Notes: generated from the sequence alone by a model not told the origin. DNA of 32,000 bases from Dubosiella newyorkensis (GCF_001945605.1 NZ_MPKA01000058.1:30001-62000), one strand, 5' to 3'. Positions 1,551-25,319 are shown, numbered from the stretch's first letter. Made by a program: numbers and translations.

Positions 1551-1551
1551 T

Positions 1552-2943
1552 ATGCCAAATATGTCTCCAAAAAAAGTCGAGATGCCCGTTCAAGAACCAG
1601 AGGTGCGGATCCAGAACTTCGAAGAAGTCGCGATCGGGTATACACCAGAAATGGCGAAAGAAGAAGCAGAACGCTGTCTTCATTGCGCTCACAAGCCATG
1701 TGTGCAAGGATGTCCGGTCAATGTCAATATTCCTGATTTCATCCAACAAGTCAAAGAAGGGGATCTTGAGGAAGCGTATCGTATTATCTCCTTAACTTCT
1801 TCTTTGCCTGCGGTTTGCGGACGTGTATGTCCTCAAGAGAGCCAATGTGAAAAATATTGTGTTCGGGGCATCAAGACAGAAGCGGTCGCGATCGGACGTT
1901 TAGAGCGCTTCGTGGCGGATACGCATCGAAAAGAAAATGACGCGCCTTTAGAGCGTCCTATTTCCAATGGTCATAAGGTCGCTGTCGTAGGTGCTGGGCC
2001 TGCTGGTTTAACGGCTGCTGGCGATCTTGCCAAAATGGGCTATGAAGTGACTGTTTTTGAAGCACTGCATGTCGCTGGGGGCGTTTTAATGTATGGAATT
2101 CCAGAATTTCGTCTTCCTAAAGAGATCGTTCAAGCCGAGATCAAACACCTTGAAGAACTTGGTGTCGATATCGTGACAAATTTTGTGGTGGGAAGAAGCG
2201 ATACGATCGATTCTTTGATCGATGATGGCTTTGAAGCGATTTTTATTGGTTCAGGGGCAGGCCTGCCGAACTTTATGAATATGCCTGGCGAGAATTTAAA
2301 GGGCGTGTATTCGGCTAATGAATTTTTGACACGGATCAATTTGATGAAAGCGTATGTTCCAGGTTCGCCGACGCCGATCCAAAATCCAAAAAGAACAGTC
2401 GTGATCGGCGGGGGAAATGTGGCGATGGATGCGGCTCGATGCGCCCGTCGTCTCGGTTCGGAAGTCCATATCGTGTATCGTCGTTCTCTTGAAGAGCTTC
2501 CGGCAAGAAAAGAAGAAGTCGAGCACGCAATGGAGGAAGGCATTATTTTTGATTTATTATGCAACCCAGTTCAAGTGATCGGTGACGAGGAAGGCTGGGT
2601 CAAACAAGTAGAATGCGTTCGTATGGAACTTGGAGAACCGGATGCTTCTGGTCGAAGAAGACCGATCGAGATTGCCAACAGTAATTTTTTGATCGATGCG
2701 GATTGTATGATCATGGCGATCGGAACTTCTCCAAATCCGCTCATTCGTCATACTACTCAAGGACTCGAGGTCAATCGTCGTGGATGTTTGATCGTCGATG
2801 ACCAAGAAATGACGAGTCGTGAAGGGATCTATGCAGGAGGAGACGCGGTGACTGGCGCTGCGACTGTGATTTCTGCAATGGGAGCTGGCAAGAAAGGCGC
2901 TCAATCGATCGACGCCTATATCAAGGCTCGTTCGAATTCATAA
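1552..2943 (+). CDS. nfnB: NfnB/SudA-like subunit (GltD-type NADPH oxidoreductase with 2x[4Fe-4S] and FAD)
   Basis: Cys clusters CLHCAHKPCVQGCP and CGRVCPQESQCEKYC. Rossmann motifs VAVVGAGPAGLTAAGDLA and VIGGGNVAMD. The ATG lies 1 nt after the nfnA stop, with AGGAGG upstream. Confidence 0.75.
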   Translation: MPNMSPKKVEMPVQEPEVRIQNFEEVAIGYTPEMAKEEAERCLHCAHKPCVQGCPVNVNIPDFIQQVKEGDLEEAYRIISLTSSLPAVCGRVCPQESQCEKYCVRGIKTEAVAIGRLERFVADTHRKENDAPLERPISNGHKVAVVGAGPAGLTAAGDLAKMGYEVTVFEALHVAGGVLMYGIPEFRLPKEIVQAEIKHLEELGVDIVTNFVVGRSDTIDSLIDDGFEAIFIGSGAGLPNFMNMPGENLKGVYSANEFLTRINLMKAYVPGSPTPIQNPKRTVVIGGGNVAMDAARCARRLGSEVHIVYRRSLEELPARKEEVEHAMEEGIIFDLLCNPVQVIGDEEGWVKQVECVRMELGEPDASGRRRPIEIANSNFLIDADCMIMAIGTSPNPLIRHTTQGLEVNRRGCLIVDDQEMTSREGIYAGGDAVTGAATVISAMGAGKKGAQSIDAYIKARSNS

Positions 2944-2955
2944 TTTCATCTCGAA

Positions 2956-2988
2956 AGCATGTTCTTGATGTTGGAACATGCTTTTTTT
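2956..2988 (+). terminator. rho-independent terminator of the nfnAB unit
   Basis: Stem AGCATGTTC, 9-nt loop, stem GAACATGCT, then T7. Confidence 0.85.
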
Positions 2989-3009
2989 GTTTTTTGACAA
3001 TTGTAAGGG

Positions 3010-3038
3010 TTTACATCTAAAGAGGGAAGTTGTATTAT
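3010..3038 (+). promoter_or_regulatory. sigma-A-like promoter (TTTACA-17-TATTAT, TG just upstream of -10)
   Basis: -35 TTTACA at 3010-3015. -10 TATTAT at 3033-3038, preceded by TG at 3031-3032. Confidence 0.5.
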
Positions 3039-3044
3039 AGAGGC

Positions 3045-3170
3045 GGATAAAGTTGAGAAAAGGCTCAGTCTCAACCTCTCACATACATACATCCTTCCTT
3101 AAGTATGTGAGTTTATTTATTCATATCGATTCCTTTCGATACAGAAAGAAAGCACTGCGGTGCTTTTTTT
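3045..3170 (+). ncRNA. candidate ~125-nt structured small RNA (or efp leader) with its own promoter and terminator
   Basis: Three hairpins at 3052-3075, 3078-3111 (9-bp stem) and 3124-3141. Terminator AAAGCAC-tgcg-GTGCTTT plus T-run at 3149-3170. No ORF longer than 7 aa. I recognise no known RNA family. Confidence 0.35.
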
Positions 3171-3232
3171 CTTGAGTTGACAAATGAAAGACAATTCACT
3201 ACATTTATAATGTACTTAAAGGAGATTAGAGA

Positions 3233-3793
3233 ATGATTAACTCGAATGATTTAAAACCAGGTCAAACGATCAATGTAGATGGCGATATTTATGTCGTATT
3301 GGATATTTCACAAAATAAAACAGCACGTTCGGCCATGGTCGTAAAAGCGAAAGTGCGTAATTTGCGTACAGGAAGCAACGTTGAGCTTTCTTGGGGCGGG
3401 GGCGAAAAGGTCGAGCCTGCAATGATCGAGAAAAAAGAAATGCAGTATTTGTACGATACGGATGATGCGATGGTGTTCATGGACAACGAAACGTATGAAC
3501 AAGTCGAGATCCCGATGGATCGTCTAGAATGGGAACGCAAATTCGTAAAAGCAAACGATAATGTCAATATTTCGAGCTATGATGGCGAGATCATTGGTAT
3601 TTCTTTGCCAGATAAAGCCGTTTTGCAGGTGACTGAATGCGAACCAGCGGTCAAAGGGGACACGGCTACGAACGCTTCTAAAAACGCTACGCTTGAAACT
3701 GGTTTAGAAGTACGAGTTCCATTATTCATCGAAGAGGGCGAAATGATCGTCATCAATACGAGTGATGGAAAGTATTCTGGACGCGCAAAATAA
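3233..3793 (+). CDS. efp: translation elongation factor P
   Basis: 186 aa with AGGAG RBS. Full-length resemblance to EF-P: N-terminal DLKPGQ, MQYLY, VKGDTA, VPLFIEEGE.I.INT..G.Y..RAK. The tip-loop residue 32 is Arg (codon cgt 3326-3328). Confidence 0.93.
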   Translation: MINSNDLKPGQTINVDGDIYVVLDISQNKTARSAMVVKAKVRNLRTGSNVELSWGGGEKVEPAMIEKKEMQYLYDTDDAMVFMDNETYEQVEIPMDRLEWERKFVKANDNVNISSYDGEIIGISLPDKAVLQVTECEPAVKGDTATNASKNATLETGLEVRVPLFIEEGEMIVINTSDGKYSGRAK

Positions 3794-3802
3794 TAACAAT
3801 TC

Positions 3803-3834
3803 AGATGCAGTCCTCCTGCATCTTTTTCTTTTCG
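3803..3834 (+). terminator. rho-independent terminator of efp
   Basis: Stem AGATGCAG, loop tcctc, stem CTGCATCT, then TTTTTCTTTT. Confidence 0.8.
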
Positions 3835-3895
3835 TCAACTTTAACTCTAAATTTTATTCGTGTATAATAGTAAAGATTACTTAAGGGAGGTCATT

Positions 3896-4804
3896 ATGGC
3901 TCAATTATCAAGAACCAAAAAATATCAACCGTTGAGAGACCAACTGGATGAAGAAACAACTGCTGCACAAAGCGCTCCGGTACGTCCTAGACTCTCAAGG
4001 GTCCAAAACCATTCATTATCGCATGCAAATAAACCGCTTCATTCGCACGAAGAAGAAAACGCGCTTTCGAGCAAATCCAACGAATTTCAAACAAGTCCGG
4101 TCATGGATGAGCTTCTTGGCGAAGTGAAACAATATAATATTGATAACGGAACCCGAATCACAGACGATACGCAAATTAACATCCTTCGTCAGCTAGACCA
4201 GCCGCAAGGATCTCAAAAGCGTACCGCGCATTTCGTGGAAATGGAAGATGATGACGAGGATGAAGGCGGAACGACGATGAAGCTTCCAAAAGGCTTGAAA
4301 GACGAAGCCGCGATGGCTTCTTTGATGCCTTCGAATCAAAAGCTGACTCGTATCAATCCCGTTCGGGTAAAAGAAGTCGAACTGGAAAGCGTCAAGATCG
4401 AACCAGAAGAAAAAGAACCAGCCACGGAGCGTATCGTTCTTTCGAGCAACGATATTTTGGCGGATGACAAAGCGGATACCGATCAGCTGACTGTCTTGAC
4501 GACAAAACAGCATACTGTTGAAGAATTCAATGAGGAACCAGTCGTTCAAAAACCAAGAAAAACAAATTCTAAAAAGAAAAAGAAATCTTCTCGTCCGGCC
4601 AAGAAAGAAAAAGCGATCGTTGAGGACGAAATGCCTAGCGCCAAAATGCGGATGCGAGCGGAGGATTTTGAGAATGATCTTCCAGAGAAGACATCGAAAA
4701 AATCGAATACGATCATGAATATCGTCTTGATCGTCTTGATCGTCTTGTTGATCGTCTCGATCTTCATGACATTCTACTTTATTCGAGGCATGGGAGTTCT
4801 TTAA
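3896..4804 (+). CDS. low-complexity, charged protein with a single C-terminal transmembrane anchor, unknown function
   Basis: ATG 3896 has RBS AAGGGAGG (3883-3890). The track start at 3860 lies inside a TATAAT box (3863-3868). About 270 aa are E/K/D/Q/T-rich with a KKKKK tract. The C-terminus is NIVLIVLIVLLIVSIFMTFYFI. Confidence 0.7.
   Translation: MAQLSRTKKYQPLRDQLDEETTAAQSAPVRPRLSRVQNHSLSHANKPLHSHEEENALSSKSNEFQTSPVMDELLGEVKQYNIDNGTRITDDTQINILRQLDQPQGSQKRTAHFVEMEDDDEDEGGTTMKLPKGLKDEAAMASLMPSNQKLTRINPVRVKEVELESVKIEPEEKEPATERIVLSSNDILADDKADTDQLTVLTTKQHTVEEFNEEPVVQKPRKTNSKKKKKSSRPAKKEKAIVEDEMPSAKMRMRAEDFENDLPEKTSKKSNTIMNIVLIVLIVLLIVSIFMTFYFIRGMGVL
4721..4768 (+). repeat. in-frame 9-bp tandem repeat (ATCGTCTTG x3 perfect, plus 2 degenerate copies) encoding the TM helix
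   Basis: Perfect copies at 4721-4729, 4730-4738 and 4739-4747. Degenerate copies at 4751-4759 and 4760-4768. The repeat translates as IVL IVL IVL. Confidence 0.9.
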
Positions 4805-5460
4805 TGCATAAGATCAATGTTGCGATCGATGGCCCCAGCGGTGTAGGAAAAAGCAGCGTTTCTGATCGTCTTGCGCAAGACAATCAAATGATTCATCTCG
4901 ATACAGGGGCTATGTATCGCTGTGTCGCTCTTGCTTTAAAGGAAAATGGAGTAAGCTTGCGTGATCACGAGGCCGTTGAACATGTATTGAATACTTTGAA
5001 GATCCGCTTCGAGGGATCGAAGGTCTTTTTGAATGGCCAAGATGTCTCGGAAAAGATCCGGACAAACGCGATCTCGAATTTCACTTCGAAAGTGTCTTCG
5101 CTTCCTGAAGTACGGAAAAAGATGGTCGCTTTGCAGCAAGAGATCACTAAAGATAAAAATTATATCGTCGATGGGCGTGATATTGGAACAACTGTTCTTC
5201 CAAACGCGGAAGTGAAGATCTTTTTGACCGCTTCTCCAAAGGCACGAGCGCAGCGTCGATATGATGAATATATGATGAAGGGGATCGAATGCGATTATGA
5301 AACGATATATCAAGATATCGTAGCCCGCGACTACCAAGATTCGCATCGCGAGATTTCGCCGCTGTGCGCCAGTGAAGACGCCTATCAGCTCGATACTTCG
5401 GATATGACGATCAATGAAGTCGTAGAGGTGATTCAGGAGATAATGGATAAAAAGCTCTAG
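4804..5460 (+). CDS. cmk: cytidylate kinase
   Basis: P-loop IAIDGPSGVGKSS, plus DTGAMYR and DGRDIGT. The ATG overlaps the previous stop (TAATG). Confidence 0.93.
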   Translation: MHKINVAIDGPSGVGKSSVSDRLAQDNQMIHLDTGAMYRCVALALKENGVSLRDHEAVEHVLNTLKIRFEGSKVFLNGQDVSEKIRTNAISNFTSKVSSLPEVRKKMVALQQEITKDKNYIVDGRDIGTTVLPNAEVKIFLTASPKARAQRRYDEYMMKGIECDYETIYQDIVARDYQDSHREISPLCASEDAYQLDTSDMTINEVVEVIQEIMDKKL

Positions 5461-5475
5461 GAAAGGAGCATAAAA

Positions 5476-6780
5476 ATGATACGTGGAACTATTGCGTTGG
5501 TGGGACGCCCTAATGTTGGAAAATCGACAATTTTCAATCGCTTGATCGGACAAAGAAAGAGTATCGTGGAAGATACGCCTGGAGTAACGCGCGATCGGAT
5601 CTATGGGATCCTTGATTGGCTCACTTTACAGTATCGATTGATCGATACGGGCGGGATCCAAATCGAAGATCAGCCGTTCAGTGAAGAAATCAATATGCAA
5701 GTCGAGATCGCGATCGAAGAAGCGAATGTGATCGTCATGATCGTTTCTGCCAAAGAAGGGATCACAAGCGATGATGTGGCAATCGCGCGCAAACTCAAGA
5801 AATCGAATAAACCGATCATCCTGGCAGTGAATAAAGCGGATAATGAATCGCTTCGCATGAATATTTATGAATTTTATGAGCTTGGCTTGGGCGATCCGAT
5901 CCCGATCAGCGGAGCTCATGGTTTAGGCTTGGGTGATTTGATGGATATCGCGGTTAAAGATATGCCAGATCAAAAGATCCCCGATTACGAAGGGATTACC
6001 TCGTTTTGTGTCATTGGCCGTCCAAACGTTGGAAAAAGCTCGCTTGTGAACGCGATCTTGAAAGAGGATCGTGTCATTGTCAGCGATGTACAAGGTACGA
6101 CAAGAGATGCGATCGATACTCCTTTTAAATTTAATGATAAAGAATATATGATCATTGATACTGCGGGTATCCGAAAGCGCGGAAAGATTTATGAGAATAT
6201 TGAAAAGTATTCGATCCTTCGTGCCCAAAGCGCTATCGAGAGAGCGAATGTCGTTCTCGTTTTGATCGATGGCGAACTTGGGATCCGGGAACAAGATAAG
6301 CACGTGGCAGGTCTTGCTCACGAAGCTGGAAAAGGTGTGATCATCGTTTACAATAAATGGGATACGGTCGAAAAAGACGATAAAACAATGAATAAGATCA
6401 CAAAAGAGATCCGGGCTCATTTTAAATATTTAGATTATGCGCCAATCGCTTTCGTATCCGCCAAAACGAGATCTAAAGTCAATCAATTGATCCCTCTGAT
6501 CGATACGGTCCACGATTACTGCACGATGCGGATCGCTACGAATGTTTTGAACGATGTCATATTGGACGCCCAAATGATGAATCCTCCAAAACCTCACAAC
6601 GGCAGACAGCTTAAAATCTTATATTCTTCGCAAGTGGCCGTAGAACCACCAACCTTCGTGCTCTTTGTCAATGATCCGGAATTGTTCCATTTCTCGTATA
6701 AGCGTTATCTTGAAAATAAATTGAGAGAAGCGTTCGGATTCGTAGGAACTCCATTGCATATCATGGTGCGCAAAAAATAG
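5476..6780 (+). CDS. der: ribosome-biogenesis GTPase Der (EngA)
   Basis: Two tandem GTPase domains: GRPNVGKST twice, DTGG and DTAG, NKAD and NKWD. There is a KH-like C-terminus. RBS is AAGGAG. Confidence 0.95.
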   Translation: MIRGTIALVGRPNVGKSTIFNRLIGQRKSIVEDTPGVTRDRIYGILDWLTLQYRLIDTGGIQIEDQPFSEEINMQVEIAIEEANVIVMIVSAKEGITSDDVAIARKLKKSNKPIILAVNKADNESLRMNIYEFYELGLGDPIPISGAHGLGLGDLMDIAVKDMPDQKIPDYEGITSFCVIGRPNVGKSSLVNAILKEDRVIVSDVQGTTRDAIDTPFKFNDKEYMIIDTAGIRKRGKIYENIEKYSILRAQSAIERANVVLVLIDGELGIREQDKHVAGLAHEAGKGVIIVYNKWDTVEKDDKTMNKITKEIRAHFKYLDYAPIAFVSAKTRSKVNQLIPLIDTVHDYCTMRIATNVLNDVILDAQMMNPPKPHNGRQLKILYSSQVAVEPPTFVLFVNDPELFHFSYKRYLENKLREAFGFVGTPLHIMVRKK

Positions 6781-6792
6781 AAAGTGATAGAT

Positions 6793-7788
6793 ATGAAAAT
6801 AGTTGTTATTGGGAGCGGAAGTTGGGGAACTGCGCTTGCCCAAACTTTAGCGGATAATAATCAGGATGTTCTGCTCTATGGTGTTGATCAAAATGAGATC
6901 GAAAATATCAACGAGCATCATCGAAATGAGAAATATTTCAAAGGGGTCGATCTAAATCCTGACTTGAAAGCGACAAACGATATTCACTGCGTCAAGGATG
7001 CGGATATGATCGTTTTGGCGGTTCCAACGATCGCGATCGAGCCTATCTGTAAACAGATCGATCCGCTTCTTGAAAAGAAAGCGATCATTGTCAACGTTTC
7101 TAAAGGCTTTCAACCTGGAACAAATGAAAGAATGTCTGAAGTGATCCGTCGAACGATTTCGAAGGATCATCTTTCCAGTGTTGTTTCTTTGATCGGTCCT
7201 AGTCATGCCGAAGAAGTCGTGTTACGGCAGCTCACTTCGATCGATGCGATCTCTTTAAAGGAAGAGGATGCAAAAGCTGTTCAGGAGCTGTTTTCGAATC
7301 ATTATATGCGGATCTATACCGGAAACGACGAGATCGGAAGCGAATTAGGGGCTGCGATCAAAAATGTCATGGCGATCGCTTCTGGGATCTTGGCTGGTCT
7401 AGGGTATGGAGATAATACGCGCGCGGCTTTGATCACTCGCGGCTTGCAGGAAATGATTCGGTATGGAACGCATTTTGGCGGAAAACCGCAAACATTTATT
7501 GGACTTACGGGCATTGGCGATCTAATCGTCACTTGCTCGAGCGTACATTCTCGTAATTTTCAGGCAGGATATCAAATTGGAAAAGAAAATACAGTTGAAA
7601 ACTTTTTAAAAAATAATAAAAAAACAGTAGAGGGTGTACGGACAGCGAAGATCGTTCACGATGTGGCAAAAGAAAATGGGATCGATATGCCGATTTGCGA
7701 AGAAGTGTATCAAATCTTATACGAAGGCAAGAAGCCTGAACATTGTGCGAATGATCTCATGATCCGTAAATTGAAGGCGGAATTTTAA
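6793..7788 (+). CDS. gpsA: NAD(P)H-dependent glycerol-3-phosphate dehydrogenase
   Basis: MKIVVIGSGSWGTALA Rossmann N-terminus, plus GPSHAEEV and KNV.AIA.G. ATG 6793 is preferred to the GTG at 6784. Confidence 0.9.
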   Translation: MKIVVIGSGSWGTALAQTLADNNQDVLLYGVDQNEIENINEHHRNEKYFKGVDLNPDLKATNDIHCVKDADMIVLAVPTIAIEPICKQIDPLLEKKAIIVNVSKGFQPGTNERMSEVIRRTISKDHLSSVVSLIGPSHAEEVVLRQLTSIDAISLKEEDAKAVQELFSNHYMRIYTGNDEIGSELGAAIKNVMAIASGILAGLGYGDNTRAALITRGLQEMIRYGTHFGGKPQTFIGLTGIGDLIVTCSSVHSRNFQAGYQIGKENTVENFLKNNKKTVEGVRTAKIVHDVAKENGIDMPICEEVYQILYEGKKPEHCANDLMIRKLKAEF

Positions 7789-7789
7789 T

Positions 7790-8083
7790 ATGGCTAAATA
7801 TGTTACTAAAGATTCTCTTGCTCAAAAACTTGCGCAAGATACGACATTAAGAAAAAAAGAAGCGATCAAGATCATCGACATCATTTTTAATGAAATGAGT
7901 GACGCGCTTGCGGAAGAGGGTCTTGTCGATATTACTGGTTTTGGTAAGTTTGTGATTTTTGATCGTAAAGCTAGAATGGGTATCAATCCTGTCACGAAAG
8001 AGAGAATGGAAATTCCAGCCAGCAAACTTCCAAAATTTAAACCATCGCAGACATTGAAGAATAAATGCAATCGCAAAGATTAA
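7790..8083 (+). CDS. hup: HU-family DNA-binding protein
   Basis: 97 aa with GFGKF....RKAR.G.NP.T.E...IPA beta-arm motif. The ATG lies 1 nt after the gpsA stop. Confidence 0.88.
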   Translation: MAKYVTKDSLAQKLAQDTTLRKKEAIKIIDIIFNEMSDALAEEGLVDITGFGKFVIFDRKARMGINPVTKERMEIPASKLPKFKPSQTLKNKCNRKD

Positions 8084-8104
8084 GGAATGTCCTTAATCTT
8101 TTTT
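8079..8104 (+). terminator. rho-independent terminator after hup
   Basis: Stem ATTAAGGA, loop atg, stem TCCTTAAT, then CTTTTTT. Confidence 0.8.
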
Positions 8105-9596: not shown

Positions 9597-10823
9597 ATGA
9601 CTGGTGAGCAGTTATTGATTGAATTCACGAAGGAAAATTTTGCGAAAAAGGTTTATCGGATCCAAGAAAATGTCTATTATTTTGTTGGATTCGGCAACAG
9701 CAATGTTACAGCGATCATAGGAGATTCATCGATCATTTTGGTCGATACTCTGGATTGTGATCTCTTTGCGAAAGATCTAAAAAAGGAGTTGGAATCGATT
9801 ACTACAAAACCTGTAGAAACGATCATCTACACTCATCGATGTCCAGATCATATGGGTGGAGCGGGAGTTTTTAAGGATACTGTAAAAGAGGTGATCGCTT
9901 TTGATAAACTGACTGAAGATTTGAAGTACTATGACAAACTTGAAGATATTATCAATATGCGAAAGGTTTTCGCTAGAGGCTATGGATTGTCGGACATCGA
10001 TGCCATCACGCATGGAATGGGTCCTCGTGAAGGTTTTATCAAGGAGGGGGCGCAACGTGCTTTTCTTGAGCCGACAACGATTTATACAGGAAAGTCTGTC
10101 GAACGTCGAATTGATGGGATTCCGTTCAAATTGATCCGGATGCCGGGGGAAACAAAAGATTCGATTTCGATTTTGCTGCCTGAATCAAACATCATGATGG
10201 TGGGGGATAATTATTATGGTGTTTTTCCAAATATGTATAGTGTTCGTGGATCCTCGTATCGAGATGTAGCGAATTGGATCGACGTGATCGATTCGATCTT
10301 AGCGCTAGATCCAGAAGTCGTGCTTCCAGGACATACGAATCCGCTCATTGGAAAAGCGGAAGTGCAAAAGAATTTGAAGAACTTCCGAGACGCACTGGAA
10401 TATGTTTTGATGAAGACATTGGAATGCATGAACAATGGTTTATCGATGAATGAATGCGCCGAAGCGGTAAAGCTGCCAGATCATTTGCAAACTCCTTTTT
10501 TAGGAGAATACTTCTCATTGGTCGAATGGGCTGTCAAAGCGATCTATACTGGATATCTAGGGTGGTTTGATGGAACTGTCAGCAAATTGATGCCAACAAG
10601 CGATGAAGAGTATCGAGAAACGATGCTTTCTTTGATTGGCGAGGATCTGCTTCGCGCAAAGATCAAGGAATGTATCTTTTTAGAAAACTATCAGATGGCA
10701 TTGCAGCTGAACTGGTTTTTACAGGATGATCAATTGGAAAAGATCGCGCTGAAAGGAAGAGCGACTCAAGTAGCGAACGCGAACGCCAGGCATTATTTTC
10801 TAGCACGTGCGAATGAACTATAA
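9597..10823 (+). CDS. MBL-fold hydrolase related to SdsA1-type alkyl/aryl-sulfatases (MBL plus dimerisation domain, no SCP2 domain)
   Basis: ATG 9597 is preceded by GGGGG. The track start at 9528 overlaps a TATAAT box (9524-9529). The metal motif reads THRCPDHMGG. YTGYLGWFDGTVSKLMP resembles the start of the alkyl-sulfatase dimerisation domain. Confidence 0.6.
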   Translation: MTGEQLLIEFTKENFAKKVYRIQENVYYFVGFGNSNVTAIIGDSSIILVDTLDCDLFAKDLKKELESITTKPVETIIYTHRCPDHMGGAGVFKDTVKEVIAFDKLTEDLKYYDKLEDIINMRKVFARGYGLSDIDAITHGMGPREGFIKEGAQRAFLEPTTIYTGKSVERRIDGIPFKLIRMPGETKDSISILLPESNIMMVGDNYYGVFPNMYSVRGSSYRDVANWIDVIDSILALDPEVVLPGHTNPLIGKAEVQKNLKNFRDALEYVLMKTLECMNNGLSMNECAEAVKLPDHLQTPFLGEYFSLVEWAVKAIYTGYLGWFDGTVSKLMPTSDEEYRETMLSLIGEDLLRAKIKECIFLENYQMALQLNWFLQDDQLEKIALKGRATQVANANARHYFLARANEL

Positions 10824-10849
10824 ACGGCAAACTTGCCGTTTTTCTTTTG
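10823..10849 (+). terminator. rho-independent terminator
   Basis: Stem ACGGCA, loop aact, stem TGCCGT, then TTTTCTTTT. Confidence 0.75.
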
Positions 10850-10943
10850 GTCAACTACTTCGCATAATGTATATTATGTAGTAAATAATATTTATTATTT
10901 ACACAGAATAAAGGTTATACGCAGTTTCAATTTCCAAATAAAA

Positions 10944-10967
10944 AAGAAGATCTCTCCAGATCTTCTT
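10944..10967 (-). terminator. rho-independent terminator of the lipoprotein gene
   Basis: Stem AAGAAGATCT, loop ctcc, stem AGATCTTCTT. On the minus strand it is followed by TTTTTTATTT. It overlaps the stop codon. Confidence 0.75.
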
Positions 10968-11889
10968 AGTATTTCACATTGATTTCTTGCGAATAACCTA
11001 ATGGTGCCGAATTCAAATCGATCGTGATCGCTTTCGGATTATAGCTTGCGAAATTTGGGATCGCATGTTCGAATGTAAAATTGATCGTACATGTCAGTTC
11101 TTGGTTTTCCGTCAAATAAAAACATTCATATCCAGTGACCGCGCCATTGATCGTTTCGATCTTAGGCTGCATATCGTTCGTCTTAAAATCAATACCCTTG
11201 ATTTGTTCAAGATCCATCTCCGCAAAATTTCCTCGATCTTTGTATTGATTCAAATCGATACCTTTTAGTGTCGCGACTGGCGAAATATAAGGCACGACAA
11301 GTGGTTTATTGGTCTTATTGATATATGTGATCTTTAAACCGCGGACCACAGAATTTCCATTTTCAAAGGAATACTTCATTTTCGAGGAATCTACATCAAA
11401 TTCAAAAGTCTTGTCTTCGTATAACGTAAATTGATCACTCGTTGAATAGTTAACGTTTTTATCACTGATATTCCTTAAATCAATGGATTTGAACGATAAA
11501 AATTGCTTATTCTTTGGAAAATAGATCCCCATGTCCTTTTGGTTGTTGTTCGGATAACCTACATACCCATAGACAAATGTAGAACGATCGGGGGCAAGAC
11601 TTTGCGTGATCGTAGTTTGTTGACGATCGATCGCATGAACATCATGATTCTCGCCATCCGTTACATTATACGATAATTCGGAAATGCTATAATTCGACTT
11701 CGAATTATTTGTCAAACTCGCTAAAAAATAATAATACACTGTATTCGTTGAATCGTTAGTTACACGCACAGCATCCAACAATTCAAAATCCACACCATCT
11801 TTGACTTCGACCTTTCCTTCCCCTTTTGAACAGGCTGAAAGAGAAAGCATAAGCACGAAAGCCAAAAGAAGCTTCCAAAATTTCTTCAT
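10966..11889 (-). CDS. lipoprotein of unknown function
   Basis: The signal peptide MKKFWKLLLAFVLMLSLSAC has a lipobox (LSAC). The mature part is N/S/T/Y-rich and beta-strand-like. I recognise no catalytic motif. Confidence 0.7.
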   Translation of the reverse strand: MKKFWKLLLAFVLMLSLSACSKGEGKVEVKDGVDFELLDAVRVTNDSTNTVYYYFLASLTNNSKSNYSISELSYNVTDGENHDVHAIDRQQTTITQSLAPDRSTFVYGYVGYPNNNQKDMGIYFPKNKQFLSFKSIDLRNISDKNVNYSTSDQFTLYEDKTFEFDVDSSKMKYSFENGNSVVRGLKITYINKTNKPLVVPYISPVATLKGIDLNQYKDRGNFAEMDLEQIKGIDFKTNDMQPKIETINGAVTGYECFYLTENQELTCTINFTFEHAIPNFASYNPKAITIDLNSAPLGYSQEINVKY

Positions 11890-18788: not shown

Positions 18789-18817
18789 TTGACAGAATGG
18801 AAAAAAGGCCATAAAAT
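18789..18817 (+). promoter_or_regulatory. near-consensus sigma-A promoter (TTGACA-17-TAAAAT) with no ORF behind it
   Basis: -35 at 18789-18794 and -10 at 18812-18817. Confidence 0.5.
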
Positions 18818-18821
18818 TGAA

Positions 18822-18914
18822 TTGTAAATACAAGATGTATTTACAATGATTTACGGCTTTACCTACAAAAGAATGAAATAAAAAGAAGGATTCAGCCGTA
18901 TTCCTTCTTTTTTT
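18822..18914 (+). ncRNA. candidate ~90-nt small RNA (or a purB 3'-UTR element)
   Basis: Perfect 10-bp hairpin TTGTAAATAC-aagat-GTATTTACAA at 18822-18846, next to the predicted TSS. It ends at the 18883-18914 terminator. The longest ORF is 11 aa and has no SD. Confidence 0.3.
18883..18914. terminator. bidirectional rho-independent terminator
   Basis: Stem AAGAAGGA, 11-nt loop, stem TCCTTCTT. An A-run lies upstream and T7 downstream. Confidence 0.75.
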
Positions 18915-19031: not shown

Positions 19032-19058
19032 GCGGTATCATTCGATACCGCTTTTTTT
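19032..19058 (+). terminator. plus-strand intrinsic terminator overlapping the larB stop codon
   Basis: Stem GCGGTATC, loop attc, stem GATACCGC, then T7 on the plus strand only. On the minus strand the hairpin is followed by ACACAAAT. Confidence 0.6.
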
Positions 19059-19715
19059 ATTGGCAAGCGAATTGATCGAATGAGCCATATAGCCGCCACC
19101 AAATCCATTATCGATATTCACGACGCTCACTCCATTCGAACAAGAATTCAACATTGACAAAAGGGCGGACAAACCATGAAAATTAGCGCCGTAGCCCACA
19201 GAAGTAGGAACCGCGATGATCGGAGCCTCCACTAAACCTCCAATAACGCTCGCCAAAGCCCCTTCCATACCCGCGACCACAACTAAAACATTCGCATGCC
19301 GGATTTGATCGAGCTTTGAAAATAGACGATGGATCCCAGCCACGCCCACATCAGAGATCAAATCGACATCATTGCCTAGAAAACGGGCAATATCGACCGC
19401 CTCCATAGCTACTGGCAAATCGGAAGTGCCTGCGCACACGACAACGATTTTGCCTGAGTTGATCAAAGTCTCGTCTTCTTTCCAGTAAAACGTTTTAGAT
19501 AATTCGTTATATGTAAATTTAGGAAATATATTCTTTAAAACATTCGCTTTTTCTTGTGAAACTCTCGATATAAAGATCTCCTTTTGATCATGTTGAAACA
19601 TATCATCAATGATGTGCTCGATCTGTTCCACATTTTTTCCTTCTCCATAAATAATTTCTGAAACACCTGTTCTTTTTTGGCGCTCATAATCGATCATAAA
19701 TTCATCCACGATCAT
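19038..19715 (-). CDS. larB: nickel-pincer cofactor biosynthesis protein LarB (PurE-like NaAD carboxylase/hydrolase)
   Basis: Motifs: RTGVSEIIYGEGK, GTSDLPVA.EA, DVGVAGIHRL, AGMEGALASV, VPTSVGYG, NIDNGFG. The exact start is uncertain: ATG 19715, GTG 19709 or ATG 19697. Confidence 0.8.
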   Translation of the reverse strand: MIVDEFMIDYERQKRTGVSEIIYGEGKNVEQIEHIIDDMFQHDQKEIFISRVSQEKANVLKNIFPKFTYNELSKTFYWKEDETLINSGKIVVVCAGTSDLPVAMEAVDIARFLGNDVDLISDVGVAGIHRLFSKLDQIRHANVLVVVAGMEGALASVIGGLVEAPIIAVPTSVGYGANFHGLSALLSMLNSCSNGVSVVNIDNGFGGGYMAHSINSLANKKSGIE

Positions 19716-20475
19716 ATCCTCCTTTTTTGAGTCCTTCTAAGTCAAAGGTCACATATCGGTATCCTAGCGCTTTGATTGCTTGGATCAATTTGGGTTCCAT
19801 AATCACTCTCTCTATATTCTTTAGATCAGTTTCGATTCGAGCAAGCTCTCCATGATCGCGCAAACGAACATCCTCGATCCCGGCTTGATGTAGAAGATCC
19901 TCTCCAGATTCGACTTTTTTTAATAAAGCAGGATCAAGAAGACGTTCATAGTCGAATCGAGAAGCAAGACAAGCGTTGGCTGGACGAGACGCGGAAGTTA
20001 AACCATACTGCTTAGAATATGAACGGATCTCTTTTTTGCTCAACCTTGACAAAGGAGAGACGATTCCTAATTCTTGGCATGCTTTTTGTCCAGGACGAAA
20101 TTCTTTTTGATCATCTTGATTTTGACCATCTAAAACGACAAAAAAACCTCGCTTTTCACTTTCTTCTAGAACGGCTGCCATGATTTTCTTTTTACACGAA
20201 TAACAACGATCTCGAGTATTGTGTTGAAAATCAGGGATGGAAAATACATCCATATCTAAGACCAAATGATCTTGCGCTTTCATTTGGTCTAGCGCGCATT
20301 CCTGATCTCGATTGGGAACCATACAACCTTTTACAAAGATAGGTAAAACGTTTTCCTTACCTAACACCTCATTACAGATCGCTAAAAGAAAGTTTGAATC
20401 GCATCCGCCACTATACGCGATCGCAACCTTTTTATAGGCTGCGATCGATTGTTTTAATTCATCAAGTTGATTCAT
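19702..20475 (-). CDS. larE: LarE-type ATP-dependent sulfur transferase (PP-loop ATP pyrophosphatase)
   Basis: PP-loop AYSGGCDS. It has ANACLASRF, the position of the sacrificial Cys in Lactiplantibacillus LarE, plus CYSC at residues 91-94. It overlaps larB by 14 nt. Confidence 0.8.
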   Translation of the reverse strand: MNQLDELKQSIAAYKKVAIAYSGGCDSNFLLAICNEVLGKENVLPIFVKGCMVPNRDQECALDQMKAQDHLVLDMDVFSIPDFQHNTRDRCYSCKKKIMAAVLEESEKRGFFVVLDGQNQDDQKEFRPGQKACQELGIVSPLSRLSKKEIRSYSKQYGLTSASRPANACLASRFDYERLLDPALLKKVESGEDLLHQAGIEDVRLRDHGELARIETDLKNIERVIMEPKLIQAIKALGYRYVTFDLEGLKKGGYDRG

Positions 20476-21383
20476 TGAAGTCCTCCATTTTGAAATCCTT
20501 GGTAAAAAAGCTCGATCGTATCCGCCATTCTAGACCCGGGAAGCACATTTTCCAATGAAACCGGCACAAAACGATTTTGTTGCACCGCCTCGAGCTGTGA
20601 TAGAGCGGGATCCGATTTGATCGTTTCGATCTTCTCTTCCAAAGAAGGGACGTCGTAATCATGGATCACGATCACATCCACATCTCGATGCAGAATTTCT
20701 TCTGGACTGATCGTGATCCAAGCTCGATCTTGAAGATCATGAAAAATATTTCGTCCACCAGCTTTTTCGATGAGTCGTGATTCAAAATTCGAGCCACTCG
20801 CGCTTTTTACTCCTCCAGCTTCGCTATCGTAGACAAGAACGTTCATAGGTTCCTTATTTTTTAGTTGATCCTCGATTTTTTGGATCCGATCCTTTTGATC
20901 TTGGATTAGAGCATCGGCTTTTTCCTCGATTTGAAATCGTTTCCCTAATTCTTCGATTTCCTCAAACTCTTCTTCGATTGTTTGTGCATCATTGATCATC
21001 GCCTTGATCCCAAATTGCTCCAACTCATCGAGTCGGATCCCTTCTTCTCCAAATTCCCAATCGATCCCATATATAAAATCCGCCCCACTGCCCATGACCG
21101 CTTCTCGAGTCGCACTTCCATACGTCAGCTGCGGAATCGAAGCATACTCTTCTTTATAACGTTCTAAGGGACCTCGAGAATGATTGTTTAAAGTCGAGCC
21201 AATGACACGATCCTGTAATCCTAATGCACAAAATAGCTCTGTACAATTCGGACCAAAAGTTAAAACGCGCTCTGGGATCGAGGATACGTCTTGATTTTGA
21301 ACTGGAGAAGGCGCACATCCTGTGATCAATAAACCGAACACAACACTAAATTTTGTAAATTTACTCTTTAATCTCAAATTCAT
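20472..21383 (-). CDS. ABC transporter substrate-binding lipoprotein (class III, FhuD/BtuF/CeuE-like)
   Basis: Lipobox LITGC. About 300 aa, matching the periplasmic binding protein family that pairs with FecCD permeases. ATGA overlaps occur on both sides. Confidence 0.7.
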   Translation of the reverse strand: MNLRLKSKFTKFSVVFGLLITGCAPSPVQNQDVSSIPERVLTFGPNCTELFCALGLQDRVIGSTLNNHSRGPLERYKEEYASIPQLTYGSATREAVMGSGADFIYGIDWEFGEEGIRLDELEQFGIKAMINDAQTIEEEFEEIEELGKRFQIEEKADALIQDQKDRIQKIEDQLKNKEPMNVLVYDSEAGGVKSASGSNFESRLIEKAGGRNIFHDLQDRAWITISPEEILHRDVDVIVIHDYDVPSLEEKIETIKSDPALSQLEAVQQNRFVPVSLENVLPGSRMADTIELFYQGFQNGGLQ

Positions 21384-22147
21384 ACATTCTCTCTTTCTTC
21401 TAAATAGATCACAGCTGGTTTTTTTGTTTGCGGATGAGGAACGATCAAACTCGGAACATGAAAGATCTTTTGGATCATTTCTTGTGTGATCACCTCTTCC
21501 ACGCTTCCTTCTTGTATGATCTTCCCTTCGTTCATCACATACAATCGATCACAATACATGCTCGCAATATTCAAGTCATGGATCGCCGCGATTACTGTCT
21601 TGCCTAACGACTTGACAAGCTGAAAGACTTGGATCTGATAATAGATATCTAAATGATTGGTCGGTTCGTCAAGAAGAAGGATCGGAGTATCTTGGGCAAT
21701 CGCCCTTGCTAATAAAACACGCTGTTTCTCCCCACCAGAAAGAGCGGAAAAGCTTTTTTCACACAAGGACTCGATCCCAACTTGCTTGAGAGCGAATTCA
21801 ATTTTGGCATTTCGAACTGGATCGTGCGAGCTTTCTCGATATGGAGTTCGTCCCATTTCGACCATCTCGTACACTGTATAATCGTAGGCGCATTCGTGAT
21901 GCTGGCTCAAAACGCCCATCAAGAGGGCCGACTCTCGGTATGAATATGTAGAAAGCTCTTTTTGCGCCAACACGATCGACCCTTCATCTGGTTCCAGTTC
22001 CCGATATAGGTTTTTTAAAAAAGTCGACTTTCCAGAACCATTTGGGCCGATCAAACCTATGAATTCACCTGAGCGGATCGTAATTGAAAGTTTTTTTAAT
22101 CCATGTCCGCATGGATAGGTATAATCTAGATTCTTGACTTCGATCAT
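21380..22147 (-). CDS. ABC transporter ATP-binding protein (FecE/FhuC-like)
   Basis: Walker A GPNGSGKST, signature LSGGEKQR, Walker B LLLDEPT, H-loop AIHD. Confidence 0.9.
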   Translation of the reverse strand: MIEVKNLDYTYPCGHGLKKLSITIRSGEFIGLIGPNGSGKSTFLKNLYRELEPDEGSIVLAQKELSTYSYRESALLMGVLSQHHECAYDYTVYEMVEMGRTPYRESSHDPVRNAKIEFALKQVGIESLCEKSFSALSGGEKQRVLLARAIAQDTPILLLDEPTNHLDIYYQIQVFQLVKSLGKTVIAAIHDLNIASMYCDRLYVMNEGKIIQEGSVEEVITQEMIQKIFHVPSLIVPHPQTKKPAVIYLEERENV

Positions 22148-23127
22148 TTGCTCCTCCGTTTTTTATGCTTAAGCATACCAATGAAGATGGGTCCTCCAAT
22201 GATCGCTGTCAACACGCCGATCGGCACTTCTTCCGGAGCGAATAGACAACGAGCCAGTACATCGGTCCAAATAACCAAGATCGCTCCGATTAAAGCCGAA
22301 AACGGGAGTACATATTGATGTTTCGAGCCAACAAGCATTCGCGCAAAATGAGGGCACATCAATCCAACAAAGCCGATCGTGCCACTCAACGCGACACTCA
22401 CCCCAGCTAATAAAGAGGCGATCACGATCAAAACGATCTGCATTTTCTTGACCGAGACACCAAGCGTTTTCGCTTGCGCTTCTCCCAAACTCATCAAATC
22501 AAGCTGACGATGAAATAAATATAAAAGCAGCATACAACCCATCAAAACGACCAAAGGCAGCCCTAAGTAATCCCATCTTGCGCCTGTTAGCGATCCAGAC
22601 AACCAAAAAGTTGCGTTATGGAGTCCAAGTGCATTCGGAGCAAGCAGCGTGATCAAACGAGTCAACCCATCCATGATCATCGAGACCGCTACACCAGAAA
22701 GAAGAAGAGTCGATATTTGAACAGTCCCTTTGGATACGCTAATTGAAAATACGAGCAAGATCGCAGACATCGCTCCCATAAAGGCGCTCAGCGGCAAACG
22801 GAAGACCCCTAAAAAAGCGAAGACGTCAAAAAGAAGATCCAAAGTCGCAAAAGCGCCCGCTCCTGAGGAAATCCCTAATAAGAACGGATCGGCGAGTTCG
22901 TTTCGTACCAAAACTTGCATAACGACTCCGCAAACCGATAAAGAAGCGCCTATAAGCGCTCCTAGCAGAACTCGAGGAATCCGAAGCATGAAGATCAGAT
23001 CATTGCTAGCTGGATGCAAGATGGATCTTAAAATATCTTGAAAGGAATATAGACTTGCGCCTAAGCACGGAGCGATCCATATAGAAGCCATACAAAGAAC
23101 AAGAAGCAAGATTCCTCTTTTTTTCAT
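22144..23127 (-). CDS. ABC transporter permease, FecCD/BtuC family (type II importer)
   Basis: About 10 hydrophobic segments and a FecCD-typical G-rich C-terminal half. ATG 23127 has AAGGAG 7 nt upstream. The track start at 23157 lies inside the ppk1 terminator hairpin. Confidence 0.85.
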   Translation of the reverse strand: MKKRGILLLVLCMASIWIAPCLGASLYSFQDILRSILHPASNDLIFMLRIPRVLLGALIGASLSVCGVVMQVLVRNELADPFLLGISSGAGAFATLDLLFDVFAFLGVFRLPLSAFMGAMSAILLVFSISVSKGTVQISTLLLSGVAVSMIMDGLTRLITLLAPNALGLHNATFWLSGSLTGARWDYLGLPLVVLMGCMLLLYLFHRQLDLMSLGEAQAKTLGVSVKKMQIVLIVIASLLAGVSVALSGTIGFVGLMCPHFARMLVGSKHQYVLPFSALIGAILVIWTDVLARCLFAPEEVPIGVLTAIIGGPIFIGMLKHKKRRSK

Positions 23128-23140
23128 AATTCTTCTCCTT

Positions 23141-23168
23141 AAAAAAAGAGTGATCATACACTCTTTTT
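23141..23168 (-). terminator. rho-independent terminator of ppk1, abutting the permease RBS
   Basis: Minus strand: stem AGAGTG, loop tatgat, stem CACTCT, then T7. Confidence 0.7.
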
Positions 23169-23201
23169 AAATCTTATCATTAAAGTATAGTCTAGTGACA
23201 A

Positions 23202-25319
23202 CTATTTCTTTTTTAGGAAGCGACGCAACCAACTCGTAAACGTAGGACTGGTTTTTTCAGGAATATAATTTTGATTTTTCGCCCATTCGATCTCCTCTTC
23301 TTGTGAATCGTATCGGCCATTTTCTCCAACATCGATCGTTTTATACGTTCCATCGCTTTGCAACTCTCTTCGCTTGGTATTGTCTTTGAGAAGTCTTTGG
23401 TAATAATCGATCACTTCTTGTTTAAGCGCTGGATCCAAGATCGGAACAGCGACCTCGACTCGACGTTCCGTATTTCTAGACATAAAGTCAGCCGAAGCGA
23501 TATAGACCTTGCATGCGTTGAGCGGACCAAAAATATAGATCCGGGAGTGTTCTAGGAATCGTCCTACGATCGAAAAGATCTTCACGTTTTCCGTATAACC
23601 AGGAACCTGCGGCAAAATACAGCAGATCCCTCGAACGATCAAAATGATCTTTACACCGCTTTGACTCGCCTCAGAGATCTTTTGAATGATATCGATATCT
23701 GTGATGGAATTGATCTTAAACAACGCTTGGGCATCAAGTCCTTGTTTGGCACGTTCGATTTGTTCATCCAATTGTTCCATGACTGTTTTTTTCAAAGAAA
23801 CTGGCGAAACGAGAAGGTTTTCATATTTACCGAAAACATTTGACATGAGCATATTCTGGAAAAAAGCGACCGCGTCTTGTCCAATTTCATTTCTTGCGCT
23901 CATATAACAATAATCGGTATATTGTCTCGCTGTCTTTTCATTATAGTTCCCTGTTCCGATCTGGGTGATCCACCGAGTTTCGCGTTTTGTTTTGTAGGTG
24001 ATCAAGCAGATCTTCGAATGTACTTTATATTGTTCGAAGCCATAGATCACATTGCATCCAGCTTCTTCAAGCCATTCGGCGGCTTTAATGTTGTTGTCTT
24101 CATCAAATCGAGCTCTTAGCTCCATAAGCACAGTGACTTCTTTCCCATTGTCCAAAGCGCGAATCAAATATTCGAGCACTTTGCTTGGCGAAGCCAGACG
24201 GTAGATCGTGATCTTGATCGAGACGACATTGGGATCCACAGCCGCTTCTTTTAGAAGTTTTAAGAAGATCCCGACATCTTGATATGGATAATTGAGCAAA
24301 ATATCGTGATGCAGGATCTGTGGGATCAATGGACGGCTAGGATCGTAGCGCTTTGAGCCCTGCGATTCGAAAGGCGGATAGGTCAAAGTGGAACGGAGTG
24401 CGTCTGGCGCTTTCGCGATCAAAGAAAACACATATTTCAGATCCAATGGGATCTTTGAAAGAAAGACTTGCGACTTGCTGATGTTCAAGTGCTCGCATAA
24501 ATAGTTCAAAGAGCTAGGATGGATATCCCGATAGATCTCTAAACGTAAAGGGGCGAGCCTTGGACGTTTCTTCAATACTTTTTTTACATAGTTGCGATAG
24601 TCCTCATCCTCTGGCGATTCTTCGTTCAACGAGATATCCGCGTTTCGGGTGACTCGAATCGTCGTTTTATTGATCACACTCGATTGGGTAAAGATCCGGT
24701 CGACATTATGATAGATGACTTGTTCTAGGAGCAAAAAATTGTTTTCCATATCCGGGATCGGATAGATGCGTTCCAAATATACTGGGATCGGGATGATGCC
24801 ATATTTTTTGACATCCTTTTCCATCAGTTCGATAAAGATATAAAGCTGTTTATTGTTCAAATGTGGAAATGGATGATGAAAATCCATGATCTGCGGGGAT
24901 AGAAGCGGCAAGATCTCGTCTTCAAAGTATCGGGTAAAATATTTTTTTTGCTTTTTGCTCAATGATTTCCATGAGACATTCGACATTTGCAGATCGAGCA
25001 TCGTTTTATTGAGCTCTTTGTAGATCGTATCGCGCATCGCATATAATTCACGTGTTTGCTCATAGATCGCGGACAATTGTTCTTGAGAATTCATTCCCGT
25101 CCTCTGGTCGATCTTCTTGGGATCGTACAATTCCATATCTTTCAAAGAGCCCACACGCACCATAAAAAACTCATCGAGATTGCTCGTAAAGATCGCTAAA
25201 AATTTCAATCTCTCAAAGATAGGAACGCTAGGATCAGCGGCCTCTTCTAAGACGCGCTGGTTGAATCGAAGCCATGATAATTCTCGATTCTGCATATATG
25301 GATATAGGTGTTCCTGCAT
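23202..25319 (-). CDS. ppk1: polyphosphate kinase 1
   Basis: 705 aa. N-terminal NRELSWL.FN.RVL.EA. Two PLD-like HKD-type motifs (VHSKICLI, RFLEHSRIYIF). Confidence 0.93.
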   Translation of the reverse strand: MQEHLYPYMQNRELSWLRFNQRVLEEAADPSVPIFERLKFLAIFTSNLDEFFMVRVGSLKDMELYDPKKIDQRTGMNSQEQLSAIYEQTRELYAMRDTIYKELNKTMLDLQMSNVSWKSLSKKQKKYFTRYFEDEILPLLSPQIMDFHHPFPHLNNKQLYIFIELMEKDVKKYGIIPIPVYLERIYPIPDMENNFLLLEQVIYHNVDRIFTQSSVINKTTIRVTRNADISLNEESPEDEDYRNYVKKVLKKRPRLAPLRLEIYRDIHPSSLNYLCEHLNISKSQVFLSKIPLDLKYVFSLIAKAPDALRSTLTYPPFESQGSKRYDPSRPLIPQILHHDILLNYPYQDVGIFLKLLKEAAVDPNVVSIKITIYRLASPSKVLEYLIRALDNGKEVTVLMELRARFDEDNNIKAAEWLEEAGCNVIYGFEQYKVHSKICLITYKTKRETRWITQIGTGNYNEKTARQYTDYCYMSARNEIGQDAVAFFQNMLMSNVFGKYENLLVSPVSLKKTVMEQLDEQIERAKQGLDAQALFKINSITDIDIIQKISEASQSGVKIILIVRGICCILPQVPGYTENVKIFSIVGRFLEHSRIYIFGPLNACKVYIASADFMSRNTERRVEVAVPILDPALKQEVIDYYQRLLKDNTKRRELQSDGTYKTIDVGENGRYDSQEEEIEWAKNQNYIPEKTSPTFTSWLRRFLKKK

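Follow-up and report, generated by a model that had tools for sequence, protein, structure and literature searches.

Five consecutive genes on the minus strand of a 32,000-nucleotide stretch of Dubosiella newyorkensis DNA (NZ_MPKA01000058.1, 30001-62000; hereafter the window) encode a FecCD-family permease, an ATP-binding cassette (ABC) ATPase, a lipoprotein substrate-binding protein, LarE and LarB (Table 1). D. newyorkensis is a mouse-gut bacterium, a member of the Erysipelotrichaceae; its LarB, LarE and binding protein match those encoded here exactly, and the locus, with identical flanks, is present in many assemblies. An original prediction, made by a model from the sequence, had claimed one tightly coupled five-gene unit, and the coordinates of the open reading frames (ORFs) bear this out: at the four junctions, in the order given above, neighbours share 4, 4, 4 and 14 nt (8 nt for LarE-LarB if the 223-aa LarB start of some gene callers holds). 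We think it likely that this locus is an operon for nickel acquisition and for the synthesis of a cofactor precursor.

Table 1. Positions of genes and sequence elements at the Dubosiella lar-transporter locus and at loci of relatives (L numbers label the relatives' loci).
Locus	Feature	Position	Strand	Basis or remarks
Dubosiella	FecCD-family permease, 327 aa	22144..23127	minus	Pfam FecCD 303 bits; public gene calls = 327 aa
Dubosiella	ABC ATPase, 255 aa	21380..22147	minus	Pfam ABC_tran 117 bits
Dubosiella	lipoprotein substrate-binding protein (class III, Peripla_BP_2), 303 aa	20472..21383	minus	Pfam 76 bits; lipobox LITGC
Dubosiella	LarE, ATP-dependent sulfur insertase	19702..20475	minus	TIGR00268 240.4 bits vs cut-off 150
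Dubosiella	LarB, NaAD carboxylase/hydrolase	19038..19715	minus	NF033503 295.1 bits vs cut-off 175
Dubosiella	leader, ppk stop to permease start	23128..23201	minus	read from sequence
Dubosiella	leader element TTGTCA	23201-23196	minus
Dubosiella	leader element TG-n-TAAGAT	23179-23171	minus
Dubosiella	leader hairpin AAAAAGAGTG/CACTCTTTTT	23168-23143	minus
Dubosiella	leader element AAGGAG	23139-23134	minus
Dubosiella	GC-rich hairpin overlapping larB stop codon	19032..19051		T-run on plus strand only
Dubosiella	hairpin flanked by A-run and T-run, between convergent purB and larB	18885..18907		sequence; L092 counterpart AAAAAAAAGAAGGATGTTCGGCCTCCTTCTTTTT
Dubosiella	perfect 10-bp inverted repeat TTGTAAATAC-N5-GTATTTACAA	18822-18846		just downstream of purB
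Dubosiella	promoter-like TTGACA-17-TAAAAT	18789-18817	plus	precedes the inverted repeat
Dubosiella	ppk1	23202-25319	minus	directly upstream of the unit
L092	ppk, preceded by ppx	4268-7305
L092	leader	7306-7386
L092	LarB	10813-11469
L092	hairpin just past larB stop	~11475-11500		T-run on operon strand
L012	aldo-keto reductase with C-terminal 4Fe-4S ferredoxin domain	6367-7491		upstream of DUF3842 gene
L095	aldo-keto reductase with C-terminal 4Fe-4S ferredoxin domain	2572-4555		upstream of DUF3842 gene; DUF362 protein also in this region
L012	DUF3842 protein	7675-8085
L075	DUF3842 protein	7553-8041
L095	DUF3842 protein	4622-5020
L026	DUF3842 protein	2925-3350
L010	NikABCDE-like system, methyltransferase, FecCD-type transporter, cooT	1512-7689

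A FecCD-type importer joined to LarE and LarB

In the established pathway to the nickel-pincer nucleotide, LarB converts nicotinic acid adenine dinucleotide (NaAD) into the mononucleotide of pyridinium-3,5-biscarboxylic acid (P2CMN), LarE converts P2CMN into the mononucleotide of pyridinium-3,5-bisthiocarboxylic acid (P2TMN), and LarC inserts nickel to give the nickel-pincer nucleotide. The Dubosiella LarB and LarE both exceed their NCBI equivalog cut-offs and keep their catalytic motifs. The LarB match spans positions 1-208 of the 209 in the NF033503 model, and the C-terminal block NSCSNGVSVVNIDNGFG is conserved in an alignment with seven other LarB proteins; the cysteine in this block is presumably the catalytic one of the Lactiplantibacillus plantarum enzyme. 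LarE has the PP-loop SGGCDS, the CYSC motif and the cysteine of ANACLASRF, and is by these motifs of the CXXC-C type, a predicted binder of a [4Fe-4S] cluster. In the Thermotoga LarE, the CXXC-C cysteines bind a [4Fe-4S] cluster, which makes that enzyme a catalytic and not a sacrificial one (PMC9283937). Some 35 N-terminal LarB residues, present in relatives from Stoquefichus, Ornithomonoglobus, a Clostridia metagenome-assembled genome (MAG) and a Bacillus MAG, are missing from LarB both in Dubosiella and in its nearest relative found (locus L092).

The three genes upstream of larE encode together a permease, an ATPase and a Peripla_BP_2 protein, the set that makes up a type II (BtuCD/FecCD) ABC importer. 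Their matches to Pfam FecCD, ABC_tran and Peripla_BP_2 agree with the earlier assignment of the transporter to this class and not to the energy-coupling factor (ECF)/CbiMNQO type; a domain scan found no CbiM, CbiN or CbiQ domain among the ORFs of the window. The permease most likely starts at ATG 23127, because AAGGAG precedes this codon by 7 nt and the earlier ATG, that of the longest permease ORF (22144..23157), sits inside a hairpin loop. The permease scores under the cut-off for all named NCBIfam permeases, and the top NCBIfam matches of the ATPase are heme, corrinoid and FecE-type ATPases, each below cut-off.

The binding protein, which databases label as an iron-complex or generic binder, falls in a single orthologous family, with 51-64% identity across Bacillota and hundreds of homologues in Enterococcus, Bacillaceae, Paenibacillus, Clostridia and others. 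When aligned, 28 of these proteins share 84 invariant positions, in blocks that include NHSRG, GADFIYGIDWEFG, VYDS, IHDYD and LE(S/N)xLPGxR. Of the invariant residues, H68, R70, Y105, D108, W109, Y185, D186, H241, Y243, D244, E278 and R285 are the predicted ligands. A segment of about 25 residues after the lipobox (consensus DNYGRxVxI), present in 27 of 27 aligned orthologues, L092 included, is missing from the Dubosiella protein (at about residues 30-36).

This binding protein lies below all the named NCBIfam binder cut-offs (F420-0 binder, 110 bits vs 392; EitA, 76 vs 640; BtuF, 60 vs 234; IsdE, 59 vs 299). Its AlphaFold model (predicted local distance difference test score, 87.9) has the two-lobe class III fold, with a template modelling (TM) score of 0.82 to 4n01; the closest solved structures, 4n01 and 4mlz, are uncharacterised structural-genomics proteins, 24-26% identical to it. 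Because its scores are below cut-off and its identity to solved structures is at most 26%, the protein clusters with no characterised binder. Thus the tight grouping with iron-siderophore or B12 binders, and the unconserved gene adjacency, that would have counted against the original prediction were not what we found: the protein is far from all characterised binders, and adjacency to lar genes recurs in several lineages.

Nickel-specific neighbours of the orthologous importers

We compared an alignment of the family with one genome per species, which yielded 80 transporter loci; their ORFs were called and clustered, and annotation covered the recurrent and the adjacent ORF clusters. A nickel-specific neighbour, of one of four kinds, lies at 22 of the 80 loci. 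Urease genes are found at seven. Four of these are in Enterococcus species, where ureABCEFGD, a urea transporter and then the permease, ATPase and binding-protein genes lie on one strand; the other three are in Halobacillus species, where the urease genes are just upstream on the opposite strand. The cooT gene directly follows the binding-protein gene at four Clostridia loci and in Desulfolucanica intricata, where a CooC-like ATPase is also encoded downstream. At five loci, in Bacillaceae and relatives, nikR is upstream of the permease gene on the other strand, directly divergent in four of the five and one ORF farther upstream in the remaining one (L019). Finally, lar genes adjoin the transporter at six of the 80 loci, further cases being the window itself and two metagenome contigs. 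CooT is a nickel chaperone, and neither urease, CooT nor NikR has a connection to the pincer cofactor.

When the binding proteins are placed on a neighbour-joining tree, the contexts are seen to be interleaved and to track taxonomy: the lar-linked protein of Streptococcus plurextorum has the urease-linked Enterococcus group as its sister, that of Bacillus falls among the NikR-linked ones, and lar adjacency occurs on at least four separate branches. The simplest reading of this interleaving is a single orthologous importer for a single substrate, which different nickel systems have recruited. Since urease, CooT, NikR and lar neighbours have only nickel in common, and since the orthologues lie beside their genes (LarBCE genes in the case of lar) in many unrelated Bacillota, the suggestion that this transporter is a nickel importer is well supported, and comparative genomics of the neighbours makes nickel the substrate that it most likely brings in.

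The same neighbours bear on whether the importer might instead scavenge a pyridinium precursor of the cofactor, as had also been proposed, or the finished cofactor, and not the metal. The class of binding protein typically takes large organic cofactors, and the top NCBIfam match here is to a putative cofactor binder (the F420-0 family, as above). However, precursor scavenging is not borne out by neighbours that share only nickel: it would leave the urease-, CooT- and nikR-linked orthologues unexplained, and would be needless where a full LarBCE set adjoins the transporter. We regard it as very unlikely.

If nickel is the substrate, then in what form? To our knowledge, the characterised Peripla_BP_2 binders all bind chelates. 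Experiments have shown that the NiuBDE system of Helicobacter pylori and H. mustelae, which likewise consists of a FecCD permease, an ATPase and a Peripla_BP_2 binding protein, brings in nickel for urease, and that NiuB recognises Ni-(L-His)2 (PMC5140060). Because of this ligand of NiuB, and because of what this class of binding proteins takes, the importer of Dubosiella would probably carry Ni(II) as a small chelate. The parallel with the Helicobacter CeuE/FecDE-type systems, drawn in the original prediction, stands for mechanism but not for orthology: the two binding proteins are not orthologous; the Bacillota protein is a lipoprotein; H. pylori CeuE was not reached in the PDB by a protein or a family-profile search with E up to 1; and in the fold comparison CeuE/NiuB ranked 19-24, at 14-16% identity. 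No link between NiuBDE and lar genes is reported in the literature that we searched, and this literature, of limited coverage, describes neither the Bacillota family as a nickel transporter, nor any Firmicutes nickel transporter of the FecCD type, nor a fusion of lar genes to an ABC importer.

Several observations weigh against nickel import coupled to pincer-cofactor synthesis at this locus. The assignment of a nickel substrate to the family would come from genomic association. At some 55 of the 80 loci no neighbouring gene relates to nickel, and many of these loci lie in plain housekeeping synteny; such housekeeping or unrelated contexts are expected for a general nickel importer, yet they add no support. 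The binding protein is at least as close to heme or B12 binders as it is to NiuB. Domain scans found no nikR gene in the window, and no NikR operator could be recognised there by eye. LarC, which the proposed pathway requires, was not found within the 32 kb of the window. Comparison by eye of the nikR-permease intergenic regions with the Dubosiella leader made no shared operator evident.

Could the importer carry an ordinary substrate, such as a ferric siderophore, heme or a corrinoid, with the lar genes next to it by an accidental fusion of operons? The database names for the protein would fit, and its nearest functionally named relatives, by sequence as well as by fold, are heme and B12 binders: BtuCD-BtuF and the heme importers (ShuT, HmuT, IsdE) share the fold and the transporter class. 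However, the matches to BtuF, IsdE and EitA fall far under the family cut-offs, an Rfam scan of the whole window found no cobalamin riboswitch, nor any other riboswitch or small RNA (sRNA), the repeated appearance of lar adjacency on the binding-protein tree is not what an accident would give, and the other recurrent neighbours point specifically to nickel. An ordinary substrate is, in our judgement, improbable, and we continue with nickel as the preferred one.

Two further kinds of neighbour recur beside the transporter. CsoR/RcnR-family repressors are encoded next to it in several Clostridia (L016, L056, L046, L033), divergently in two Proteocatella MAGs. These could be nickel sensors; we left them out of the nickel evidence because at least one, at L057, is accompanied by a P-type ATPase and might be a copper sensor. 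Class I methyltransferases dependent on S-adenosylmethionine (Methyltransf_11/25), from several sequence clusters, are encoded beside the transporter at about ten loci (L014, L020, L021, L024, L035, L037, L048, L080, L086 and L010). At the last of these, in Desulfolucanica intricata, the FecCD-type transporter and cooT have a NikABCDE-like (SBP_bac_5/Opp-type) ABC system and the methyltransferase gene immediately upstream, so that two different putative nickel importers are adjacent.

larC and the use of the pincer precursor

The original prediction had noted that neither larC nor larA is adjacent to the unit, and within the window this holds: in a scan of the 29 other ORFs of at least 100 aa there was no Ni_insertion (LarC) or Lar_N (LarA) domain, and six LarC proteins, used as tblastn queries on the window, gave a best E of 0.36. 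The spacer between larB and purB holds neither a larC remnant nor a remnant of the 129-aa gene of L092. We also ran the N-terminal 220 residues of LarC from Stoquefichus against 5.8 billion proteins. The best 120 of the 6816 matches were all at least 65% identical to the query, a range that would not include a Dubosiella LarC, expected at 50-60%; abundant clusters among the matches listed were proteins of Faecalibacillus, Thomasclavelia and metagenomes.

Other lar-linked loci show what usually accompanies such a unit. At four loci the genes run in the order permease, ATPase, binding protein, LarE, LarB, and larC comes immediately behind larB: Candidatus Stoquefichus massiliensis (L012), Ornithomonoglobus (L075), a Clostridia MAG (L084) and a metagenome contig (L095). 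In Stoquefichus, larC begins one base after larB and can be read for 220 residues, up to a masked stretch. At two more loci the arrangement differs: in a Bacillus MAG (L070), a LarA-like gene and genes for a short-chain dehydrogenase, LarE and LarB, together with a split LarC, come before the transporter, and in Streptococcus plurextorum (L087), LarB, a split LarC and a LacI regulator precede it, with LarE a few genes later. Thus larC is present at six of the seven other lar-linked loci, the exception being the sister lineage L092.

The L092 locus has the same synteny as that of Dubosiella (ppk, permease, ATPase, binding protein, LarE, LarB and convergent purB-purC), its five genes overlap by 4-8 nt, and it, too, has no larC. 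Identity between the two lineages is 63% for the binding protein, 62-66% across the transporter genes, 73% for LarB and 57% for LarE; in both, the C-terminal block of LarB is intact, as are the PP-loop and the CXXC-C cysteines. Since LarB and LarE have diverged to much the same extent as the transporter genes, they are under selection; and, with intact, diverged genes in two lineages, the five-gene unit without larC is old and selected, and is not the product of a fresh deletion.

This bears on whether larE and larB are in decay, as leftovers of an ancestral operon of the permease-ATPase-binding protein-larE-larB-larC type that has lost its larC. The Stoquefichus and L095 arrangement, which includes larC, does look ancestral, and both LarB and the binding protein of Dubosiella are short relative to their relatives, by the N-terminal 35 and the 25 or so residues described above. 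Against decay, both lar genes are full-length, well above their equivalog cut-offs and with catalytic motifs kept, L092 has retained larE and larB with their overlaps at 57-73% identity, and the many strain variants of Dubosiella are all full-length; we consider such decay highly improbable.

If the unit is maintained, either: LarC is encoded elsewhere in the Dubosiella genome, as the established pathway leads us to infer; or Dubosiella and L092 truly do without it, P2TMN being metallated in some other way (for instance straight from the imported nickel complex or by an unrelated insertase) or used in a non-canonical form. The second possibility draws on the persistence of an operon without larC in two lineages as diverged as these, with LarB and LarE intact and coupled to an importer, and reports of variant pincer cofactors (NPAD) and new client folds make the pathway less uniform than was thought (PMC13524815). 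Yet all the other lar-linked loci except that of L092 have larC, which makes use of the LarB/LarE product without LarC, as the original prediction had suggested, the less likely course, and absence from a 32-kb window is uninformative for a genome of more than 2 Mb. Moreover, we know of no LarC-independent nickel insertion. We therefore hold a life without LarC to be unlikely in these two lineages, and give a slightly smaller chance again to its specific form, in which LarB, LarE and imported nickel make a working cofactor, or the dithiocarboxylate P2TMN has another role, with the importer as the sole nickel partner.

The missing larA is not unusual, since LarA homologues are found in one of 14 Erysipelotrichia (PMC11770544 supplement, whose tables do not name Dubosiella) and biosynthesis genes without LarA are reported for hundreds of prokaryotes (PMC13524815).

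In the scheme that we favour, in which the operon serves to acquire nickel and to make a cofactor precursor, the permease, the ATPase and the lipoprotein binding protein would form a BtuCD-F-type importer for Ni(II), which would probably enter in the form of a small chelate. LarB, translated from the same message as the importer, would convert NaAD to P2CMN, which LarE, predicted to depend on a [4Fe-4S] cluster, would thiolate to P2TMN. A LarC encoded elsewhere in the genome would then insert nickel, giving the nickel-pincer nucleotide for a client enzyme encoded outside the window.

A precedent for lar genes beside a nickel transporter is found in L. plantarum, where larABCDE accompany larR(MN)QO. 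The likeness extends to LarB and LarE, which are orthologous by NCBIfam; the differences are that the L. plantarum transporter is of the ECF/CbiMNQO type, whereas that of Dubosiella is of type II with a lipoprotein binding protein, that the Dubosiella locus has neither larA nor larC, and that the L. plantarum LarE has a single sacrificial cysteine where the Dubosiella enzyme has CXXC-C. There is a likeness, too, to the Stoquefichus and L095 operons, with binding proteins 57-60% identical to that of Dubosiella, the same five-gene order and tight junctions. However, these have larC, a DUF3842 gene before the permease gene and an aldo-keto reductase gene upstream, and the Dubosiella locus has none of the three.

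The aldo-keto reductases of the Stoquefichus and L095 loci carry a C-terminal 4Fe-4S ferredoxin domain. Aldo-keto reductases encoded beside LarBCE include pincer-cofactor enzymes (PMC13524815, 2026), and because their superfamily holds such enzymes, those at these two loci are candidate clients. The DUF3842 protein (130-160 aa) recurs beside the transporter at five loci (L012, L075, L095, L026 and L091); its gene is directly upstream of the permease gene at three lar-linked loci, and lies between the binding-protein gene and cooT at L026. It may be an unrecognised nickel-handling partner.

Lar genes with a nickel transporter are a theme known from L. plantarum, and a FecCD-type nickel importer is one known from NiuBDE; the Dubosiella locus would combine the two, with a binder that is not orthologous to NiuB. 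This would assign a probable nickel substrate to a widespread Bacillota importer family now labelled as iron-complex or generic binders, and extend type II ABC nickel import beyond Helicobacter NiuBDE to a binding-protein lineage unrelated to it by sequence. The family would supply urease in enterococci and halobacilli, the maturation of carbon monoxide dehydrogenase in Clostridia, and the synthesis of the pincer cofactor among gut Erysipelotrichales and Clostridia as well as in a Bacillus and a Streptococcus. The mouse commensal Dubosiella newyorkensis, itself much studied, would be a likely user of a nickel-pincer cofactor. New client families are being found via lar gene neighbourhoods (PMC13524815), and the transporter could be an extra anchor for such searches.

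Leader, terminators and flanking sequence

The Dubosiella leader shares its layout with that of L092, which has TTGTCC, TGCTAAAAT, a hairpin with a T-run and AAGGAG. Common to both are a -35-like TTGTC(A/C), an extended -10 element, TGnTAAnAT, which lies 19 nt farther on, a hairpin that runs out into a T-run, AAGGAG and the ATG. The leader hairpin could be the terminator of ppk, an attenuator of the lar-transporter operon, or both.

At the other end of the unit, the hairpin between the convergent purB and larB genes, which has a counterpart in L092, is probably, judging from its flanking A-run and T-run, a bidirectional terminator common to both genes, and would end the operon. The original prediction had placed a plus-strand terminator and an sRNA-like region after larB. 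The former corresponds to the GC-rich hairpin at the larB stop codon with its plus-strand T-run; the latter is unsupported, because Rfam found no RNA family in the window. The homologous hairpin of L092, which terminates larB there, lies just past the larB stop codon with its T-run on the operon strand. The Dubosiella LarB is six residues longer than that of L092, and its hairpin falls within the end of larB. A 19-nt stretch of the larB-purB spacer is 95% identical in L092, and on the purB side of the spacer a promoter-like sequence on the plus strand precedes a perfect inverted repeat.

The ppk gene is directly upstream of the permease gene, on the same strand, in both Dubosiella and L092, and at none of the other 80 transporter loci; this adjacency may be plain synteny or may reflect a link between polyphosphate and metal handling.

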